NCBI GenBank assembly: GCA_964510805.1
Contig: CAZEDG010000001.1
Location: 48,227 to 112,226, forward strand
DNA: 64,000 nt
Direction of reading: 5' to 3'
DNA from: an uncultured Candidatus Saccharibacteria bacterium
GTDB lineage: Bacteria > Patescibacteriota > Minisyncoccia > Phycocordibacterales > UBA5272
Position 1 is the first letter of the stretch, and each line of letters opens with the position of its first letter. Of this stretch, positions 5,602-47,077 are shown piece after piece. The notes below the pieces were generated by a model, which saw only the letters and a program-made list of their open reading frames with translations, made no database searches and had not been told where the DNA came from. Position numbers and translations under genes: made by a program.

Positions 5602-7303
5602 GCGTGCTGCTTCTCATGAGATTAGTCCTGAGGATGTGTTCATTGATTCACAGAACCTCTCCTCGCTTAATCTTGACCAGATGGAAGGGCAACTTGAGAG
5701 ACCTCTTGGAAAACATGTTTTTTATATTGCGCTTTTTTTGATCATCCTTCTTGTTGGAGGTTTTTCGTATCGACTATTTGCTATGCAGATACTTGGAAGA
5801 GAGGAATATCAAGAGCTTGCAGATAATAATCATCTGAAGAAGATACCACTCTTTCCTCTTCGTGGTACGATTTCTGATCGTAATGGAAAGTTGCTTGCAT
5901 GGAATTCAGAGTACGAAGTAGGAAGCTCAACAGAAAAACAAAAAATTACCGATGATATTCCTCGTCGTGAGTATACAAGCGAAGGAGGCTTTTCTCATCT
6001 TCTTGGTTATGTAAGTTATCCTAAACGTGATCAGTCAGGTGTCTTTTGGCAAGATGAATACTTCGGTAAAGACGGCGTTGAAAAAGAGTATCAAAATGAG
6101 CTCGCTGGAGTAAAAGGTGAACGTATCATTGAGGTGACTGCAACACAATCAGTTGAGGCGCAGAATGTGGTGGTATATCCTTCGCACGGGGAGAATCTCA
6201 TGCTTACTATTGATAAAGATGTTCAGGCAAAACTCTACGAGGAGATGATTGCACTTTCTCATAAGGCAGGATTTACAGGAGGTTCTGGGGTGATTATGGA
6301 TGTACGAAATGGAGAAATTCTTGCGCTTACAAGTTTTCCTGAGTATGATAACAATCTCATTACGAATGCTAAGACAAAAGAAGACAAAACACGTGTAGCT
6401 GATGATCTTCTTGATAAACGTGGCAAGTTCATCAATCGCCCTGTACAAGGGCTCTTTACTCCAGGATCAACGGTGAAGCCTTTTTTTGCGTACGCTGCTC
6501 TTGCTGAAAATATCATTACTCCAGAAAAAAATATTTACAGTTCTGGAAAGCTTGTGATTAAGAACAGATATGATGGACCTGATACTGTTTTTCGTGACTG
6601 GAAAGCACATGGGTATGTGGATATGCGTAACGCAATTGCTGAGTCATCCGATGAATACTTCTATCAAGTAGGAGGTGGGTATCAAGACCAGCCTGGACTT
6701 GGTATTGCAAGACTTCATGAATATGCGACTAAGTTTGGCTTTGCAACAACAACGGGAATAGATTTACCTGGAGAGAATTATGGGCTAGTTCCTTCCCCAG
6801 AATGGAAGAAAAAAGTGTTTAACGAAGATTGGCTTTTGGGGAATACCTACCATTCATCAATCGGACAGTATGGATTCCAAGTTACTCCGCTTGAGCTTGT
6901 GAGAGCGGTTGCTTCGATCGCTAATGGTGGATACCTCGTAACTCCTCATGTGCTTAGACGGCTGGATACTGCAAGTACTTCGCTCTCACTTAATCAGTCT
7001 AAGCTTAGTGTGATTCAGGAAGGGATGCGTCTTGCAGTTACAAGTGATGGAGGTACCGCTAAGGCGTTACGAATTGATGATGTGCATGTTGCTGGTAAAT
7101 CAGGTACCGCAGAACTTGGCGTGAGTAAGCAGTTAGTGAACTCTTGGATTAGTGGATATTTTCCATATGAAAACCCAAGGTATGCCTTTGTAGTAATCAT
7201 GGAAAAAGGCGATAGACATAATCCATTCGGTGCAGTCGGTGCAATGAGAGAGGTATTACTTTGGATGAGAGATAACACTTCGTATACGAAGGCGGGGGAG
7301 TAG
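5564..7303 (+). CDS. mrdA: penicillin-binding protein 2 (elongasome transpeptidase)
   Basis: STVK (SxxK), SSD, KSGTA (KTG) motifs. Alternative start ATG at 5681 (MEGQLERP...). Confidence 0.85.
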   Translation: MRLFRRIFTDRARRAASHEISPEDVFIDSQNLSSLNLDQMEGQLERPLGKHVFYIALFLIILLVGGFSYRLFAMQILGREEYQELADNNHLKKIPLFPLRGTISDRNGKLLAWNSEYEVGSSTEKQKITDDIPRREYTSEGGFSHLLGYVSYPKRDQSGVFWQDEYFGKDGVEKEYQNELAGVKGERIIEVTATQSVEAQNVVVYPSHGENLMLTIDKDVQAKLYEEMIALSHKAGFTGGSGVIMDVRNGEILALTSFPEYDNNLITNAKTKEDKTRVADDLLDKRGKFINRPVQGLFTPGSTVKPFFAYAALAENIITPEKNIYSSGKLVIKNRYDGPDTVFRDWKAHGYVDMRNAIAESSDEYFYQVGGGYQDQPGLGIARLHEYATKFGFATTTGIDLPGENYGLVPSPEWKKKVFNEDWLLGNTYHSSIGQYGFQVTPLELVRAVASIANGGYLVTPHVLRRLDTASTSLSLNQSKLSVIQEGMRLAVTSDGGTAKALRIDDVHVAGKSGTAELGVSKQLVNSWISGYFPYENPRYAFVVIMEKGDRHNPFGAVGAMREVLLWMRDNTSYTKAGE

Positions 7304-8379: not shown

Positions 8380-8420
8380 GAATACAAAGAGCGACGCCGT
8401 AGGCGTCGCTCTTTGTATTC
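8380..8420 (+). terminator. rho-independent terminator, conserved hairpin family
   Basis: 19-bp perfect stem gaatacaaagagcgacgcc / ggcgtcgctctttgtattc, loop gta, T-rich tail. Confidence 0.7.
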
Positions 8421-10126: not shown

Positions 10127-10155
10127 AAAGAGCGACACCGTAGGTGTCGCTCTTT
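10127..10155 (+). terminator. rho-independent terminator, same hairpin family with a compensatory base-pair change
   Basis: aaagagcgacacc-gta-ggtgtcgctcttt. Confidence 0.6.
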
Positions 10156-34000: not shown

Positions 34001-34408
34001 ATGTCAGTAGAAACAAAAAATCGTTATATTGAAGCAGTTGGTCGTCGTAAGACTGCGGTTGCTCGTGTACGTATCACACCTTCAACAAAAGCTTCTTTTC
34101 TTATCAATGAAAAAGATGTAAAGGATTATTTCCCTACACATGAGCTTCAGACTATCTCACAAGAAGCTATCTCTAAGTCAGAGATTGGTGAGAAGTTCAC
34201 TGTTACTGTTCATGTAAATGGTGGAGGTATCCATGCGCAAGCAGAAGCGATTCGTCACGGTCTTGCAAGAACTCTTGTTCTTCGTGATGAACAAGTGAAG
34301 AACGCTCTTAAGAAGCTTGGCTTCCTTAAGCGTGACCCTCGTCAGGTTGAACGTAAGAAGTTCGGTCTCAAGAAGGCTCGTAAGTCTCCAACCTGGTCAA
34401 AACGATAG
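34001..34408 (+). CDS. rpsI: 30S ribosomal protein S9
   Basis: Ends with the conserved ...KKARKSPTWSKR. Confidence 0.9.
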   Translation: MSVETKNRYIEAVGRRKTAVARVRITPSTKASFLINEKDVKDYFPTHELQTISQEAISKSEIGEKFTVTVHVNGGGIHAQAEAIRHGLARTLVLRDEQVKNALKKLGFLKRDPRQVERKKFGLKKARKSPTWSKR

Positions 34409-34530
34409 CAAAACTATCCCATCTACTTTGTCGAAACCCCGATTTTGTCGGTCGTCGTACTACCAAGTACGACTTCCTCCAAAATCGGGGTTTCTTCGCG
34501 TATACGGGCAGTTTTGTATCGTTTTGTGTA
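34397..34530 (+). mobile_element. ~130-nt MITE-like element overlapping the last rpsI codons
   Basis: Terminal inverted repeats caaaacgatagcaaaac / gttttgtatcgttttg around a long nested hairpin (gaaaccccgattttg...caaaatcggggtttc). Absent from the downstream duplicate copy. Confidence 0.35.
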
Positions 34531-34613
34531 AGCGTTAAGAGTTTCGCTTTACTTATATTTTCAAAAACACTTATCATTTTACGGTTAAGTGGTTTTGTTA
34601 TATATTTAAATAT

Positions 34614-36074
34614 ATGAAAAAATCTTTTTCTGTTTCATTAATCTTGTTTGTAATGTTATTTGCTTTAGTGACTATTGTTTATATTGTAAATAAAAATAAC
34701 ATTAGAGAACTCTGGGCTGATACCACGAAAGGATTGGTAGGGGCTAAAAAAATACAAGCATCAAGTTCTGCTGAAAGTAGTTCTATTTCTACTGCTGTAG
34801 AAATAGAAAACCCTGAATTGAGGACTGATTTAGTGCTAATGAACCAAATAACAGTTAATGCTAAAATAGAAAACCTTGAAGAAGCAAGTGATGCCGCAAA
34901 AGCATATTTAGGTACAATTTTATTGCTGTCTTCTGGGGATATTGCTTATATAGTTAAAGCTAATCATAAAAGCTCATTATTTTTAAATAATGAAAAGCTG
35001 AAAGAAGAAGGCGTTTCTTTTGTGAAAGAAATAGCAAAAAATTTAGTATATCTCGTTACTGATTTTAAAAATGATCAGGAGTTTTTATTTTTTGGAAGAA
35101 ATTGGGTAGTAGTGGCACCAACAGGACTTTTCACTATCTCTGACGTGCAAGAAATAGATGGTGATATTTCCTATGTTTTTAATAGTAAAAATTTTCAACA
35201 AAAAATCCTTTTTTATAAAGGAAAGAAAATTATAGAAGCCCCATATATAAAAAATGTTAAAAAAACAAGTGGCGGTTTCTCATATATAACTTCTGAAAGC
35301 AGAAAAATCGGAGATACCTTGTTTTATAATGATCAAAAGGTTCTCTCTGCTCATGAAATTCTAAGTTATTTAGAAGTTGGAGATAAACTTGCTTATGTTA
35401 CTTTTGGTTATCTCGACAAGGAACATACTCCAAGTGAAGGGTTTTTTGCTAGTGATTACACAACGAAAGAAACTCTTTTTTATGATGGTAAAAAAATTAT
35501 TACAGATGATTCTATAGAGATATATAACATCTCTAACAAGTTGGCTTATGTGGTAAGTACTAAATATGGTAAAAAAAATCTTTTTTATAATAATAAAAAA
35601 ATAGTAACTGCAGATAATATTACTGATATTAAACCAGTCGGAAATAAGATATCTTATGTTATAAGTGATTATAACGCTGACAAGAAGAAGCTTTTTGTTG
35701 GAGATGATCTTATTGTTACAAAAAATAATATAAATTATATAGATTATATTAATGTTAAAGAAATTAATGGTAAAATCCTTTATAGTGTTCGAGATAATTT
35801 GACAGAAGATATTGTAACTTTTTATGACTCAGAAATGATTGGATCAAATATTGATTTCATGAAAATAATTTCAAGTAATATTGATAACGGACTTTGTTAT
35901 ATTATTTTTGATAAAACCACTCTGAAAAATAGCCTTATGTGTAATAAAAAAATAATAACAGAAAATGTAAGTGATTTTAGGGTGAGTGATATCTCTTCTT
36001 CTACATTTTTTATTTTAAAAACAGAAGAAACAGCAAGCTCTACAATTTTATCAGTTTATAGATTAACTTTATAA
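34614..36074 (+). CDS. membrane-anchored tandem-repeat (beta-propeller-like) protein, very AT-rich
   Basis: N-terminal TM; about 8 repeats of roughly 40-45 aa with core K.LFY.GKKI.T...I....KL.YV; GC much lower than flanks. Confidence 0.5.
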   Translation: MKKSFSVSLILFVMLFALVTIVYIVNKNNIRELWADTTKGLVGAKKIQASSSAESSSISTAVEIENPELRTDLVLMNQITVNAKIENLEEASDAAKAYLGTILLLSSGDIAYIVKANHKSSLFLNNEKLKEEGVSFVKEIAKNLVYLVTDFKNDQEFLFFGRNWVVVAPTGLFTISDVQEIDGDISYVFNSKNFQQKILFYKGKKIIEAPYIKNVKKTSGGFSYITSESRKIGDTLFYNDQKVLSAHEILSYLEVGDKLAYVTFGYLDKEHTPSEGFFASDYTTKETLFYDGKKIITDDSIEIYNISNKLAYVVSTKYGKKNLFYNNKKIVTADNITDIKPVGNKISYVISDYNADKKKLFVGDDLIVTKNNINYIDYINVKEINGKILYSVRDNLTEDIVTFYDSEMIGSNIDFMKIISSNIDNGLCYIIFDKTTLKNSLMCNKKIITENVSDFRVSDISSSTFFILKTEETASSTILSVYRLTL

Positions 36075-36078
36075 AAAT

Positions 36079-36176
36079 CAGGCTCGTAAGTCTCCTACAT
36101 GGAGCAAGCGTTAAGATATCGCTTTACTTATATTTTCAAAAACACCTTGTACATGTAAGGTGTTTTTGGTTTTAAA
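36079..36176 (+). repeat. direct-repeat copy of the rpsI 3' end (ARKSPTWSKR-stop) plus the intact rpsI-type terminator
   Basis: Matches 34374-34396 plus 34531-34600, including coding remnant ggctcgtaagtctcctacatggagcaagcgttaa and terminator aaacacctt-gtacatgt-aaggtgttt. Confidence 0.6.
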
Positions 36177-36265
36177 TTTGACGAACTTACTTAAAAAGTG
36201 TAGTGTATTTACTACATCCTAGTACCTGGATGGGTTAATTGAGCGGATGCTCATAAGGAGTGGAA

Positions 36266-36790
36266 ATGTTTGCTTTCTTCAAGAAACCTTTTGAACCACA
36301 GAAGAGTCAGAATCAAGGAGATTATGTAGGAGATTTTGATAAATGGATTCAACGTAAGAATGCTGTTATAAAACGACTGCTAGAAGATTTTCCTTGGCTT
36401 TGGGCGGTTAATAACCATTATAACAGAGATGATGGTGACCGTATCAAGGTGAATCAGGACATGTCGGACCTTAAGTTGGTTCTTTCCCAAAATTCAGACA
36501 AGACAGGTTTTTTGCTTTGGTCTGTAGCAAGTCATTTTTGTGACAGTTTTAACGTCCTTGTCAAATGTCATGAACGTCAAGAAGGAAAGATCTGGTCTGA
36601 AGCGATCACTCAACAAAGTTACGGCCATAGAAATATTCTTTATTTGGTTTCTGTTGATTGGGGATCTTCTGGTCATGGAATAACTATTTTTCGGCATCCT
36701 GAAAAACAATGTTTGGATGAAGTTATCCAACAGGTTTGTGATCTTCATGGTGTCAACGCTAGACGATTGATATCTTCTGACTTTGTTTGA
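36266..36790 (+). CDS. hypothetical protein
   Basis: Strong AAGGAG SD 5 nt upstream, which is unusual in this window; terminator follows at 36803-36838. Confidence 0.35.
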   Translation: MFAFFKKPFEPQKSQNQGDYVGDFDKWIQRKNAVIKRLLEDFPWLWAVNNHYNRDDGDRIKVNQDMSDLKLVLSQNSDKTGFLLWSVASHFCDSFNVLVKCHERQEGKIWSEAITQQSYGHRNILYLVSVDWGSSGHGITIFRHPEKQCLDEVIQQVCDLHGVNARRLISSDFV

Positions 36791-36975: not shown

Positions 36976-37572
36976 ATGAATGATGACCACAATGAAAAAA
37001 TTCTAGATGTTTCAGAAGAGGGGAATCCTACAGAGGACGATGTTTCTTTTGAAGAAGTGAATGAAGATGGTGAGCAAGATGTTCGAGCTAAACTTAAGAA
37101 GTTACAGGACAAGATCAAGCTACTTGAGCAAGAAAAGCAAGACTACCTAGATCAGAGTGTTCGCGCTCGTGCAGATTATGCTAATTATAAAAAAGAAGTA
37201 GAAGCACTTCGTATAAGTGATCGCAAGTTTGCAACGAAGCGATTTATAGAAGAATTACTTCCTGTTCTTGATGCCTATGATATGGCTCAAGCTAATAAAG
37301 AAGCTTGGGAAAAAGTTGATCAAGGGTGGCGTATTGGTATTGAGTATATTTTCTCACAATTTCGTTCCATTCTAGAAAAAGAAGGAGTGCAACAATTTGG
37401 AAAAATTGGCGACATGTTTGACCCAATGCTTCATGAGACGATGCAGTCTGTTTCTGTTGAGAATGAGAGTGATAACGATAAAGTAGTTAAAATTCTCCAG
37501 AATGGCTACAAGATGCATGATACTATTTTGCGTCCAGCTCGTGTCCATATTGGTCACTACACTAAGCAGTAG
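36976..37572 (+). CDS. grpE: nucleotide exchange factor GrpE
   Basis: Coiled coil followed by a C-terminal beta domain (ILRPARVHIG). Confidence 0.85.
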   Translation: MNDDHNEKILDVSEEGNPTEDDVSFEEVNEDGEQDVRAKLKKLQDKIKLLEQEKQDYLDQSVRARADYANYKKEVEALRISDRKFATKRFIEELLPVLDAYDMAQANKEAWEKVDQGWRIGIEYIFSQFRSILEKEGVQQFGKIGDMFDPMLHETMQSVSVENESDNDKVVKILQNGYKMHDTILRPARVHIGHYTKQ

Positions 37573-45512: not shown

Positions 45513-46925
45513 ATGACTAGAATATATTGCAAGGACCTTTCTTCACATGTTGAACAAGAGGTGACTGTACAGGGTTGGATCGATGTGCGTCGTGATCAGG
45601 GGAAGATGATCTTCCTTGATCTTCGTGATGTAACAGGGAAGGTGCAAGCAGTTGCTCTACCTTTTCACACAGAAGCAAAAGAAGTTGCTGAGAAGGTTCG
45701 CCCTGAGTGGGTTGTTGAGGTTAAGGCTAAGGTTAATAAGCGTCCAGAGAAGAATGTCAAAGCAGATACCCTTAATGGTGACATTGAGCTTGAAATTCTT
45801 ACTATCACAATTCTTAATGAGGCAACCACCCCAGCATTTGATATCTCAACTAGTGGTTATGAGGTAAACGAAGAAGTAAGACTTGAGAAAAAGTATCTTG
45901 ATCTTCGTCGAAAGAGACTTCAAGATAATGTGATTATGCGACATAAGGTAATTAAGATGATTCGCGATGAGCTTGATAAGCAGAACTTTTTTGAAATAGA
46001 GACACCACTTCTTACTAACCCGACACCCGAAGGATCACGGTCATATCTTGTGCCTTCGCGTATTTGGCAGGGGAATTTTTATGCACTTCCACAATCACCA
46101 CAACAGTATAAGCAACTTCTCATGTCTTCTGGATTTGAACGATACTTCCAGATTGCAAAATGTATGCGTGATGAGGATACTCGTGGTGATCGTCAACCAG
46201 AGTTCACTCAGATGGACCTTGAGATGAGTTTTGTGAAGCGCGAAGATGTAATGAGGGTGAATGAAGAATTGCTTATTACAATCGTACAAAAACTTTTCCC
46301 TAAGAAGCGTATTCAACAAGTGCCGTTCCCTGTGTTTACCTATAAAGAGGTGATGGAGAAGTATGGATCTGATAAGCCTGATATTCGTAATGATAAGAAT
46401 GATCCTGATCTTCTTGCATTCTGTTGGGTTGTTGATTTTCCGGCATTCGAAAAGACAGGAGAAGATAACGTGGACGGGACAGGAGAGTGGACCTTTACTC
46501 ATAACCCATTCACTGGTGTCAAAGATGAATGGAAGCAGTCGCTTCTTGAAAAAAAGAATATTGCTGATATCGTATCAACACAGTATGATGTTGCACTCAA
46601 TGGGTATGAGATTGGTGGCGGTGGAATACGTCTTCATGATCCTGCAATGCTTCGCAAAGTGTTCGAGATTATGGGGTATGATGATGAACGCATCGAAAGA
46701 AACTTCGGGCACATGCTAACCGCGCTTGGCTCAGGCACTCCTCCACACGGAGGTATTGCGTGGGGGCTTGATCGCTTCCTTATGATACTTCTTAATGAGC
46801 CTAATATTCGCGAAGTAATGGCATTTCCGAAGACAGGTGAGGGTAAGGACCTCCTCATGCAGGCTCCGGCCCCTGCAAGCCAAAAAACCATGCGTGAGCT
46901 TGGTATAGAAGTGAAGGGGAAGTAG
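45513..46925 (+). CDS. aspS: aspartyl-tRNA synthetase
   Basis: Class II motifs (FFEIETP, RDED, GGGIRLHD); short bacterial/archaeal-like form. Confidence 0.9.
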   Translation: MTRIYCKDLSSHVEQEVTVQGWIDVRRDQGKMIFLDLRDVTGKVQAVALPFHTEAKEVAEKVRPEWVVEVKAKVNKRPEKNVKADTLNGDIELEILTITILNEATTPAFDISTSGYEVNEEVRLEKKYLDLRRKRLQDNVIMRHKVIKMIRDELDKQNFFEIETPLLTNPTPEGSRSYLVPSRIWQGNFYALPQSPQQYKQLLMSSGFERYFQIAKCMRDEDTRGDRQPEFTQMDLEMSFVKREDVMRVNEELLITIVQKLFPKKRIQQVPFPVFTYKEVMEKYGSDKPDIRNDKNDPDLLAFCWVVDFPAFEKTGEDNVDGTGEWTFTHNPFTGVKDEWKQSLLEKKNIADIVSTQYDVALNGYEIGGGGIRLHDPAMLRKVFEIMGYDDERIERNFGHMLTALGSGTPPHGGIAWGLDRFLMILLNEPNIREVMAFPKTGEGKDLLMQAPAPASQKTMRELGIEVKGK

Positions 46926-46968: not shown

Positions 46969-46997
46969 AGAAGAGCGACGCCGTAGGCGTCGCTCTT
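46969..46997 (+). terminator. rho-independent terminator, conserved hairpin family
   Basis: gaagagcgacgcc-gta-ggcgtcgctcttc. Confidence 0.65.
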
Positions 46998-47077
46998 CTT
47001 AACTTTGATTGACAAAAAGTATTATATTATGTAGTATAATTATTAGTTTTGGGAATCAAAAAATGGAAGGAACCAAA

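Follow-up and report, generated by a model that had tools for sequence, protein, structure and literature searches.

In Neisseria, minimal mobile elements are cassettes that are swapped between conserved flanking genes via transformation and homologous recombination; to our knowledge, they have not been described as leaving duplicated gene tails. Foreign DNA can also be taken up by homology-facilitated illegitimate recombination or Campbell-type integration, i.e., with one homologous anchor and a non-homologous join, or through a single crossover of a circle. In streptococci, the 3′ end of rpsI is a documented target of three families of tyrosine integrases, and the elements at this site have direct repeats that may be short or long, accrete in tandem and decay (PMC5357655). 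Here we describe a Saccharibacteria locus, lying in a 64,000-nt stretch of DNA (the window), in which a gene of foreign composition (gene X) sits between two copies of the rpsI tail. We put the probability at roughly one in two that X is a horizontally acquired surface-protein gene, captured at the rpsI-grpE hotspot of a Patescibacteria genome of Paceibacteria/Nomurabacteria-like type by host recombination or repair anchored on the rpsI tail.

The features of the locus are as follows:

34001..34408, + strand: rpsI (ribosomal protein S9), the intact target gene (Pfam Ribosomal_S9 PF00380, E 3.9e-39)
34374..34396, + strand: direct repeat copy 1, part a, rpsI codons (K)ARKSPTW
34397..34526, + strand: palindromic MITE-like element of 130 nt, a near-perfect hairpin whose 5′ arm gives S9 its working codons Ser-Lys-Arg-stop
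34527..34538, + strand: putative relic of an older S9 end, tgt aag cgt taa, read from the sequence and aligning with agc aag cgt taa of copy 2
34530..34605, + strand: direct repeat copy 1, part b, the post-stop segment with a small AAGCG/CGCTT hairpin and a weakened terminator
34614..36074, + strand: cassette gene X, 486 aa, with a predicted N-terminal membrane anchor, disordered linker and ~10-bladed β-propeller
36080..36114, + strand: direct repeat copy 2, coding part, an untranslated, 5′-truncated rpsI tail
36115..36180, + strand: direct repeat copy 2, post-stop part with a clean intrinsic terminator (stem 36136-36169) that gene X now uses
36260..36790, + strand: ORF176, a second hotspot gene (probable start ATG 36266; host-like GC3 of 0.30; lineage-unique)
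36976..37572, + strand: grpE, the conserved right border of the hotspot (Pfam GrpE, E 2.5e-37; synteny)

Anatomy of the cassette

The duplicated unit comprises the last 11 codons of rpsI and about 65 nt after the stop, i.e., 34374-34396 plus 34530-34605 in copy 1 and 36080-36180 in copy 2. A pattern search for AGGCTCGTAAGTCTCCNACNTGG returned two sites only, 34374-34396 and 36080-36102, which are identical at 21/23 positions, and TCGCTTTACTTATATTTTCAAAAACAC was likewise found at two sites only, 34544-34570 and 36119-36145, as an exact 27-nt stretch; neither pattern occurred in any of the shuffled controls (0/100). The post-stop segments 34530-34570 and 36106-36145 are 95% identical, and copy 2 translates in its own frame as ARKSPTWSKR-stop. 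An early count of eight synonymous differences between the copies was discarded: six of these lie in the S-K-R-stop codons contributed by the palindromic element, and within the repeat proper the copies differ at 2 of 23 nt. By folding, the terminator of copy 2 has a 14-bp stem with an energy of −15.8 kcal/mol (z −4.4), and that of copy 1 is weaker (−8.3 kcal/mol, with a 12-nt loop) and was not called by the terminator scan. The first-pass annotation had reported the rpsI tail and its terminator as present twice, the second time with a clean terminator, and the alignment of both copies, the shuffles and the folding bear this out; where it gave about 8 codons, the duplicated unit has 11, and the start that it gave for part b, 34531, is corrected to 34530. 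It had further described copy 1 as split, with a degenerate terminator; a separate palindromic element, and not decay, accounts for this form of the copy.

The functional stop codon of S9 (34406-34408) lies within the 5′ arm of this palindromic element. The RNA of the element has a minimum free energy of −64.3 kcal/mol (z −9.5), and covariance model R1 scores the window element at 121 bits (E 1.5e-24). Across 21 element copies, 92.4% of cells are paired, compared with 72.3% after shuffling, and both-sided change is seen in 20/30 pairs. Homologous elements lie in relatives 3′ of rpsI, grpE, rpsD, a gene ending in EGL-stop and others, where they overlap the stop codon; the element belongs to a family dispersed on the stop codons of several genes of the clade. 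Behind the rpsI copies of the element stands a direct relic of S-K-R-stop of 9-12 nt, of which no clear counterpart was seen at other genes; the form (agt)aagcgttaa also occurs 3′ of the element in seven relatives (L010, L011, L016, L017, L025, L033 and L043). Rfam returned nothing relevant for the window and 11 loci at the gathering score or for 34300-36300 at E<=10, and no tRNA or tmRNA was found in the window. A metagenome scan with a 24-mer common to both repeat copies gave 0 hits; a second scan, with a gapped hairpin motif, gave 95 stretches, of which 80 were fetched and 0/80 confirmed by the covariance model, and these were set aside as chance matches. The elements lying across the stop codons of S9, GrpE and S4 constitute an unannotated repeat family in the phylum, and they can mislead both the calling of gene ends and the assembly of contigs.

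Gene X alone is a compositional outlier. It has a GC content of 0.274 and a GC3 of 0.17, against a GC3 of 0.27-0.38 in 19 host genes, and no 1-kb bin of the window is lower in GC than 35001-36000, in agreement with the earlier description of a very AT-rich gene between the copies with GC far below that of its flanks. No family match for X was found in Pfam, PHROG or NCBIfam, and no Pfam repeat family matches its blades. The AlphaFold2 model (pLDDT 77.7, pTM 0.69) has a helix at residues 5-28 and is all-β from 74 to 485, and Foldseek searches with this model led to β-propellers, with a top TM of 0.49 for the sortilin Vps10p domain. By this prediction, repeated four-stranded blades close into a ring and an anchor signal is present, as in a β-propeller surface protein; the modelled fold class is a membrane-anchored, roughly 10-bladed β-propeller, so that the membrane anchor previously proposed is retained and the ~8 tandem repeats give way to ~10 blades. 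The family is very rare: only 6 relatives were found at E<=1e-30 among 1.84 billion representatives, and no relatives of X were found on viral contigs.

Could the locus be a chimeric contig, in which a short repeat has fused the ribosomal operon to a foreign fragment rich in AT? Some conspecific contigs do end at 34348 or 34357 and others begin at 36057, near the repeat edges, and one (L001) diverges from the window within X, at 35233. However, both junctions are backed by six independent contigs, and identical junctions were obtained from separate samples with separate assemblers: L001 (JGI) and L002 (ENA) agree in the left junction (rpsI-hairpin-copy 1-X), and L087 (JGI) and L089 (Logan) in the right one (X-copy 2-ORF176-grpE). 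An assembly artefact is thus already largely refuted, and we give it next to no weight. X is present in 6/6 informative conspecific contigs, and no same-species empty-site allele was found among these six. The species occurs in samples JGI 3300045345 and 3300045388, ERZ4216102, SRR12487046, SRR23702466, DRR623196 and DRR623200. An apparent pair of copies of ORF174 in L087 proved to be a gene-calling artefact.

The rpsI-grpE interval across the clade

The synteny rplQ-rplM-rpsI-(variable region)-grpE-dnaK is kept in 80 related loci, across which the gap between rpsI and grpE ranges from 26 bp to 4.4 kb. This interval is a clade-wide insertion hotspot. In 43 close relatives its cargo amounts to 79 ORFs, 49 of them singletons, with pyruvate kinase, enolase, OMP decarboxylase and surface proteins among the examples, and ORF176, which is called as 174 aa in conspecific contigs, has no homologue in the 80 related loci. 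The first-pass annotation had proposed a comparison of rpsI-downstream regions in relatives, and short intervals resembling empty sites are indeed present there. With conserved flanks, cargo that is unrelated from lineage to lineage and no mobility genes among the ORFs tested (recombinases in 0/10 large cargo ORFs of relatives), the interval has the character of a hotspot of the minimal-mobile-element type.

Truncated second rpsI tails were found 3′ of rpsI, flanking insertions, in five other genomes (L047, L018, L033, L073 and L079). In L047, 1.7 kb of cargo lies between the tails. In L047, L018 and L073, the repeat stops at the stop codon and each copy carries its own, unrelated terminator; on this reading of the sequences, the stop codon appears to be the limit of conservation between alleles. 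The left terminator type of L047 also occurs in four other lineages, and its right flank resembles that of its closest relative, L041. The duplicated tail starts before the stop by 15 nt in L033, 21 nt in L073 and L079, 36 nt in the window, 27-42 nt in L047 and 54 nt in L018, and no common crossover position was found across the six genomes, the coding repeat measuring 15 to 54 nt. The two copies of L018 differ at 7 codons, 6 of them synonymously, which suggests that both were once working gene ends. A derived Ser codon, TCT, is common to both window copies and AAAGCT to both L047 copies, and therefore each pair are mutual closest relatives. Such mutually closest copies would be expected from duplication in situ or from gene conversion at a later time, and no less from the union of two alleles. 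A mosaic test of the window genes against 17 relatives found none close enough (74-88% nucleotide identity) to place a crossover. Two further candidates were rejected: an 80-nt repeat in L003 is a pair of small paralogous ORFs rather than a duplicated gene tail, and an SRP-RNA-like motif in L073 is without Rfam support. If X was captured in this way, duplicated gene tails would mark capture events, and they could help to find such events in other metagenome-assembled genomes.

Possible routes of capture

We propose that X was captured by the cell's own recombination or repair machinery acting on the conserved rpsI tail, with no recombinase borne by the cassette. This may have taken place by a Campbell-type single crossover of a circular piece bearing an rpsI-tail homologue, or by a homologous crossover in rpsI combined with an illegitimate join on the other side. 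Either event would put a second version of the rpsI tail and terminator 3′ of X, so that copy 1 completes the S9 frame and the strong copy 2 terminator ends X. Probably, X is transcribed from the rplM-rpsI operon, by reading through the weakened copy 1 terminator, or from a weak promoter-like site inside that terminator. Under repeat-mediated excision, an empty site of one type (A) would read ...GGTCTCAAGAAGGCTCGTAAGTCTCCTACATGGAGCAAGCGTTAAGATATCGC and one of the other type (B) hairpin-tgtAAGCGTTAAGAGTTTCGC...AAAAACACCTTGTACATGTAAGGTG, and a circle or tandem junction would read ...CTTTATAAAAATCAGGCTCGTAAGTCTCC(A/T)AC(C/A)TGGTCAAAACGATAG.

X might instead be a minimal or decayed integrative element, comparable to the cis-mobilisable elements (CIMEs) that IMEs or ICEs leave behind, moved by a tyrosine or serine recombinase that acted in trans or was later lost, with the repeats as attL and attR at an attB in the rpsI tail. 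The direct repeats are att-like in that they duplicate the 3′ end of the target and restore the gene, a layout that matches elements targeting gene 3′ ends and rebuilding the gene; the 3′ end of rpsI is a known target in streptococci (PMC5357655), and duplicated tails recur at this gene in six genomes. However, no integrase or other recombinase was found in the cassette, in the 30 other ORFs of the window or in ten large cargo ORFs of relatives, which extends the earlier remark that no integrase is present. The left edges of the repeats also differ between genomes, the window repeat takes in 65 nt of non-coding terminator at 95% identity, and the left terminator of L047 looks ancestral rather than element-borne. 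In addition, a homologue of X (P0002, in L005) has the same T-X-T-Y layout at an unrelated doc/Fic locus, where it is flanked by 450-bp repeats with 87% identity; as these are far beyond the length of an att core, homologous or illegitimate recombination is indicated. Site-specific integration is thus, in our view, unlikely: of the integration footprint read by the first-pass annotation, the foreign insertion at the 3′ end of rpsI, the duplicated tail and the intact S9 stand, and no sign of a site-specific recombinase was found among the ORFs tested.

A one-step insertion would need a single event only: the palindrome-rich rpsI tail, as a fragile site, suffers a break, staggered or processed, at which foreign DNA is captured, and fill-in or template-switch repair leaves ~100 nt of resident sequence duplicated on both sides. 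Long palindromes are abundant exactly at the rpsI tail (the 130-nt hairpin, and terminators in which the final codons are paired), and the lineage-specific states TCT and AAAGCT shared within each pair of copies favor this reading. It is nevertheless doubtful: the palindromic element, present at this position in copy 1 and in several relatives, is missing from copy 2 of the window, the differences in L018 are mostly synonymous, and two alleles account better for repeats that end at the stop codon with unrelated terminators behind them (L047, L018 and L073). Moreover, we know of no established mechanism in bacteria for target duplications of 100-450 bp. Quite improbable is an undescribed mode of gene capture at the stop codons of essential genes in this clade, in which palindromes whose outer arms copy the last codons (the 130-nt element and "extended" terminators) would serve as attachment or break sites, and cassettes would bring a replacement tail via a trans-acting enzyme or via palindrome-induced breakage and template switching.

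If correct, capture by host recombination or repair would show how ultra-small, host-dependent Patescibacteria gain surface proteins, which are likely their interface with hosts and phages, and that a defined hotspot downstream of an essential ribosomal gene can admit genes without dedicated mobile-element machinery.

Comparison with known systems

The palindromic element is MITE-like in its size (100-200 bp), its long stem-loop and its several dispersed copies, as are ERIC (127 bp), Correia/NEMIS, RPE and YPAL (PMC2229807); like these, it has the same orientation as the ORFs to whose ends it is fused and is probably co-transcribed. Unlike these, it has no sequence or Rfam match, its outermost stem, in which the host gene's final codons are paired, is specific to each locus, its copy number is low as far as seen (1 in 64 kb), and it has no known partner transposase. 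The locus also resembles an integron cassette in having a single promoterless ORF beside an imperfect palindrome of attC-like size (130 nt). However, no IntI was found among the ORFs tested, cassettes do not form an array in which each has a palindrome of its own, the palindrome ends read TCAAAACGATAG ... TATCGTTTTG and are without RYYYAAC/GTTRRRY cores, and the palindrome family also lies 3′ of ordinary genes (grpE, rpsD). An integron cassette was rejected, as the locus has only one palindrome, ordinary terminators form the other borders of the cassette, and no integrase is found among the ORFs tested.

The locus shares with the streptococcal IMEs, ICEs and CIMEs (PMC5357655) the same gene and the same end, direct repeats that duplicate the tail, an intact gene, and a site at which tandem or decayed insertions build up. 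The streptococcal elements encode tyrosine integrases with a fixed site per family (PMC5357655), whereas no recombinase gene was found here, and the locus further differs in its single-gene cargo, in repeat edges that vary between genomes and in its Patescibacteria host. As with the minimal mobile elements of Neisseria, a conserved pair of genes, here rpsI and grpE, brackets varied whole-gene cargo without mobility genes; unlike there, duplicated gene tails recur in five other genomes. Homology-facilitated illegitimate recombination and Campbell-type integration are routes that would here be read from the end product only, and this end product is the one observed in the window: foreign DNA beside or between diverged copies of an anchor, which here is rpsI.

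The duplicated rpsI tail

Within the conserved gene row rpsD-rpoA-rplQ-rplM-rpsI ... grpE-dnaK, the window carries the end of rpsI twice, once on each side of gene X (34614-36074), which is the only ORF between the two copies. The sequence AGGCTCGTAAGTCTCCnACnTGG lies at 34374-34396 and again at 36080-36102 (identity 21/23), and the post-stop segment at 34530-34570 is 95% identical to 36106-36145, including a 27-nt exact run. Neither repeat pattern occurs elsewhere in the 64 kb, and neither turned up in 100 shuffles. The features concerned are as follows.

34001-34408, + strand: rpsI (Pfam Ribosomal_S9)
34397-34526: palindromic element, a 130-nt near-perfect hairpin (-64 kcal/mol, z -9.5)
36136-36169: copy 2 terminator, clean (-15.8 kcal/mol)

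The downstream copy (copy 2) reads ARKSPTWSKR-stop and is joined to no gene body, and it lacks the palindromic element, which copy 1 has in common with relatives. The first-pass annotation's pairing of a degenerate copy 1 terminator with a clean one in copy 2 holds, as the counterpart hairpin in copy 1 is weaker (-8.3 kcal/mol, 12-nt loop) and is not called by the terminator scan. Both copies share the Ser codon TCT, a derived state (Ala in relatives).

The left junction is identical in L001 and L002 and the right junction in L087 and L089, all conspecific contigs from other samples and assemblers, which rules out an assembly artefact. The proposed duplication of rpsI tail and terminator around an AT-rich gene is confirmed by the repeat matches, the shuffles and these independent contigs. 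All six informative conspecific contigs are filled (6/6), and no same-species empty site was found; the nearest relatives do not exceed about 88% nucleotide identity over any segment, and two metagenome scans returned nothing usable. L001 (JGI) is identical to the window as far as 35233, inside X, and then continues into unrelated AT-rich DNA (L001 2304-2593), where an ORF that is zinc-ribbon-like by eye begins at the junction (MLNRDKEFKDRIKNLV...CNNHEYYVKPSNFLNGNRCPDKKC) and has no Pfam match; this divergence reflects either variation in the population or a chimeric contig. Several samples also yielded short conspecific contigs whose edges lie about 20 nt outside the repeat copies (L091 ends at 34348, L092 and L093 end at 34357, L088 and L090 begin at 36057), which could reflect heterogeneity in cassette presence or low coverage of AT-rich X.

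The att-like repeat is absent from the rest of the 64 kb. Five other genomes (L047, L018, L073, L079 and L033) have a second, 5′-truncated rpsI tail 3′ of the genuine gene end. In L047 the second tail (42 nt) lies 1.7 kb downstream, behind two cargo ORFs, one of them an AT-rich gene for a membrane protein, whose end falls just short of the pseudo-tail. Each L047 tail has its own, unrelated terminator, the left one of a type found in four other lineages; the right flank resembles that of the closest relative, L041, and AAAGCT is common to both tails. The second tail of L018 (54 nt) is followed by a palindromic element, and its two tails show seven codon differences, six of them synonymous. The second tails are 21 nt long in L073 and L079 and 15 nt in L033. 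The left edges of the duplicated tails are all different, and in L047, L018 and L073 the similarity ends at the stop codon. Between the 21-nt repeats of L073/L079 lies a GC-rich segment of about 90 nt with GAAGGAAGGCAGGG (6430-6520); it was considered by eye as an SRP RNA and rejected, with no Rfam match at gathering score.

Palindromes at gene ends

Copy 1 is indeed split, as first described, and the interruption is a separate palindromic element that occurs in relatives too. Its 5′ arm, tca aaa cga tag, forms the working Ser-Lys-Arg-stop of S9, and directly past its 3′ arm stands tgt aag cgt taa, a relic aligned with agc aag cgt taa of copy 2; the same relic stands behind most rpsI hairpins of relatives. 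Behind rpsI, and in the same register, L017, L021, L026, L050 and L010 carry homologous hairpins 125-131 nt long, and a second hairpin sequence type stands behind rpsI in L010, L011, L016, L019, L025, L043 and L033. Tandem elements directly behind rpsI number three in L050 (6388-6752) and two in L010 (3038-3294).

A covariance model built from 11 copies, used over about 1 Mb of related sequence, located copies at the 3′ ends of grpE (L018 8579-8705, L030 7173-7299), of a gene ending EGL-stop (L030 10438, L032 10214, L033 11279, L048 11454) and of rpsD (L045 4032), with further copies elsewhere; the window holds one. The element lies on the upstream gene's strand in nearly all copies (sole exception L029), and most copies overlap that gene's stop codon. 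In 21 copies, paired cells make up 92.4%, versus 72.3% when shuffled and at most 52% in slid controls, and 20 of 30 pairs have changed on both sides. The core CATCTACTTTGTCG ... TTCGCGTATC is common across loci, and the outermost stem is locus-specific, pairing with the gene's last codons; Rfam gave no match to the element. Overlapping elements supply the last 1-5 codons of grpE, the EGL-stop gene and rpsD, and among the four orthologous copies at the EGL-stop gene, synonymous changes in the final Leu codon are accompanied by matching changes in the outer stem.

Other palindromes were also seen. Otherwise ordinary rpsI terminators are extended to long perfect palindromes in L009, L015, L033 (6397-6450), L016, L043, L051 and L073/L079 (6360-6430), with a 3′ arm reverse-complementary to the final 12-21 nucleotides of the rpsI coding sequence; such pairing (12 nt, at most one mismatch) was found at 4/78 loci versus none in four internal controls. 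A terminator-like palindrome, AAAGAGCGAC(G/A)CCGTAGG(C/T)GTCGCTCTTT, occurs three times in the window (8386-8414, 10127-10155, 46970-46998), downstream of greA, a class-II aminoacyl-tRNA synthetase gene and a gene ending at 46925; between copies one pair switches from G-C to A-T, a compensatory change, and 100 shuffles gave no such match.

Gene X and the rpsI-grpE gap

The GC scan sets X (GC 0.274) apart, with a GC3 of 0.17 versus 0.27-0.38 in 19 other window genes. The next ORF, ORF176 (36260-36790), is host-like (GC3 0.30); its start is most likely ATG 36266, behind AAGGAG at 36253-36258, rather than GTG 36260, and gene callers put its product at 174 aa in conspecific contigs. X has no match in Pfam, PHROG or NCBIfam. 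A word-indexed search found two homologues (42% and 38% identity), and a HMMER profile search of 1.84 billion representatives gave 71 matches at E<=1e-3, six of them at E<=1e-30, with no viral relative found. The AlphaFold2 model (pLDDT 77.7, pTM 0.69) places an N-terminal helix at 5-28, then a disordered linker, followed by about 40 strands over 74-485, and Foldseek matched it to beta-propellers (top TM 0.49, the ten-bladed Vps10p domain of sortilin). From this model and these matches, X is best described as a predicted membrane-anchored extracytoplasmic propeller. It could be transcribed by read-through past the weakened copy 1 terminator or from a promoter-like site at 34578-34606 (TTTACG-17-TATATT); sites of this type show no enrichment versus shuffles.

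The X homologues occupy unrelated genomic contexts. In L005, the homologue is flanked by two 450-bp repeats, 87% identical. They hold the 3′ two-thirds of a doc/Fic gene and run on through the intergenic region into a signal sequence, of which they take in the first ~20 codons; the next, unrelated secreted protein has this signal sequence too. Thus the T-X-T-Y layout also exists at a non-ribosomal locus. This region (L005 7258-10519) is an antitoxin (MazE-like) and doc/Fic locus, with one doc full-length but frameshifted and one 5′-truncated within the repeats, and both downstream secreted proteins start with MNKIV.WLV.

The rpsI-grpE site is a hotspot. Scanning one genome per species gave 80 loci, all from Patescibacteria MAGs (labelled Paceibacterota, Nomurabacteria or Parcubacteria; S9 identity <=87%), and the order rplQ-rplM-rpsI-...-grpE-dnaK was present in 80/80. 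The gap between the rpsI stop and grpE measures 26-250 bp in the more distant half of the set, as it does in a number of close relatives (L027, L029, L030, L032, L039, L042 and L046), and reaches 4.4 kb in others. The gaps of 43 close relatives hold 79 ORFs of at least 70 aa, 49 of them without a relative in any other gap; neither X nor ORF176 was found in any of these gaps. Ten of the largest cargo ORFs include pyruvate kinase, a dehydrogenase-phosphatase fusion, enolase, OMP decarboxylase and peptidase S11, the others being LamG/Gly-rich and PG-binding proteins, DUF4419 and two unknowns; none of the ten is a recombinase. Housekeeping-type enzymes are among the cargo: the OMP decarboxylase gene (L025 6650-7543) has a GC of 0.59 versus 0.40 in the background, and pyruvate kinase, dehydrogenase-phosphatase and enolase form a block in the L012/L021 gaps.

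Proposed routes of capture and known systems

We favor, at a probability of roughly one half, capture of X through host recombination with the conserved rpsI tail as its anchor, because of the varying left edges, the ends at the coding limit, the mostly synonymous differences in L018 and the L005 repeats, which far exceed any att core in length, taken together. Such capture would proceed either through a single crossover of a circular piece carrying an rpsI-tail homologue or through one homologous and one illegitimate join, and would leave two versions of tail plus terminator, one on each side of the cargo. However, this reading is not clean, given the codons common to both copies, the L047 flanks and the absence of the element from copy 2. 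The shared TCT in the window and AAAGCT in L047 suggest that the copies could have arisen in situ or been homogenised afterwards.

These three blemishes leave two rivals. The first-pass annotation had read the duplication as a footprint of site-specific integration; the duplication stands, and site-specific integration, which would require a recombinase supplied in trans or lost afterwards, now appears rather unlikely relative to host capture. It has a direct precedent in streptococci, where elements integrate at the rpsI 3′ end, including decayed and tandem ones (PMC5357655), but neither X nor 30 other window ORFs yielded an integrase or transposase domain, in agreement with the initial reading. 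The other rival is insertion in one step at a break induced by a palindrome, with duplication of a long target stretch, and we hold it similarly improbable.

Three components are already known: integration at the 3′ end of rpsI accompanied by tail duplication, conserved genes that flank hotspots of gene cassettes, and MITE-like palindromes joined to the ends of genes. The element resembles bacterial MITEs in size and shape, such as the 127-bp ERIC, and MITEs of this kind have also been seen fused to ORF ends and co-transcribed (PMC2229807). In contrast to the known systems, the present case lies in another host phylum, the ORFs tested at the site include no recombinase gene, tail duplications of variable length recur in six genomes, and the palindromes belong to a family in which the outer stem follows the final codons of essential genes.
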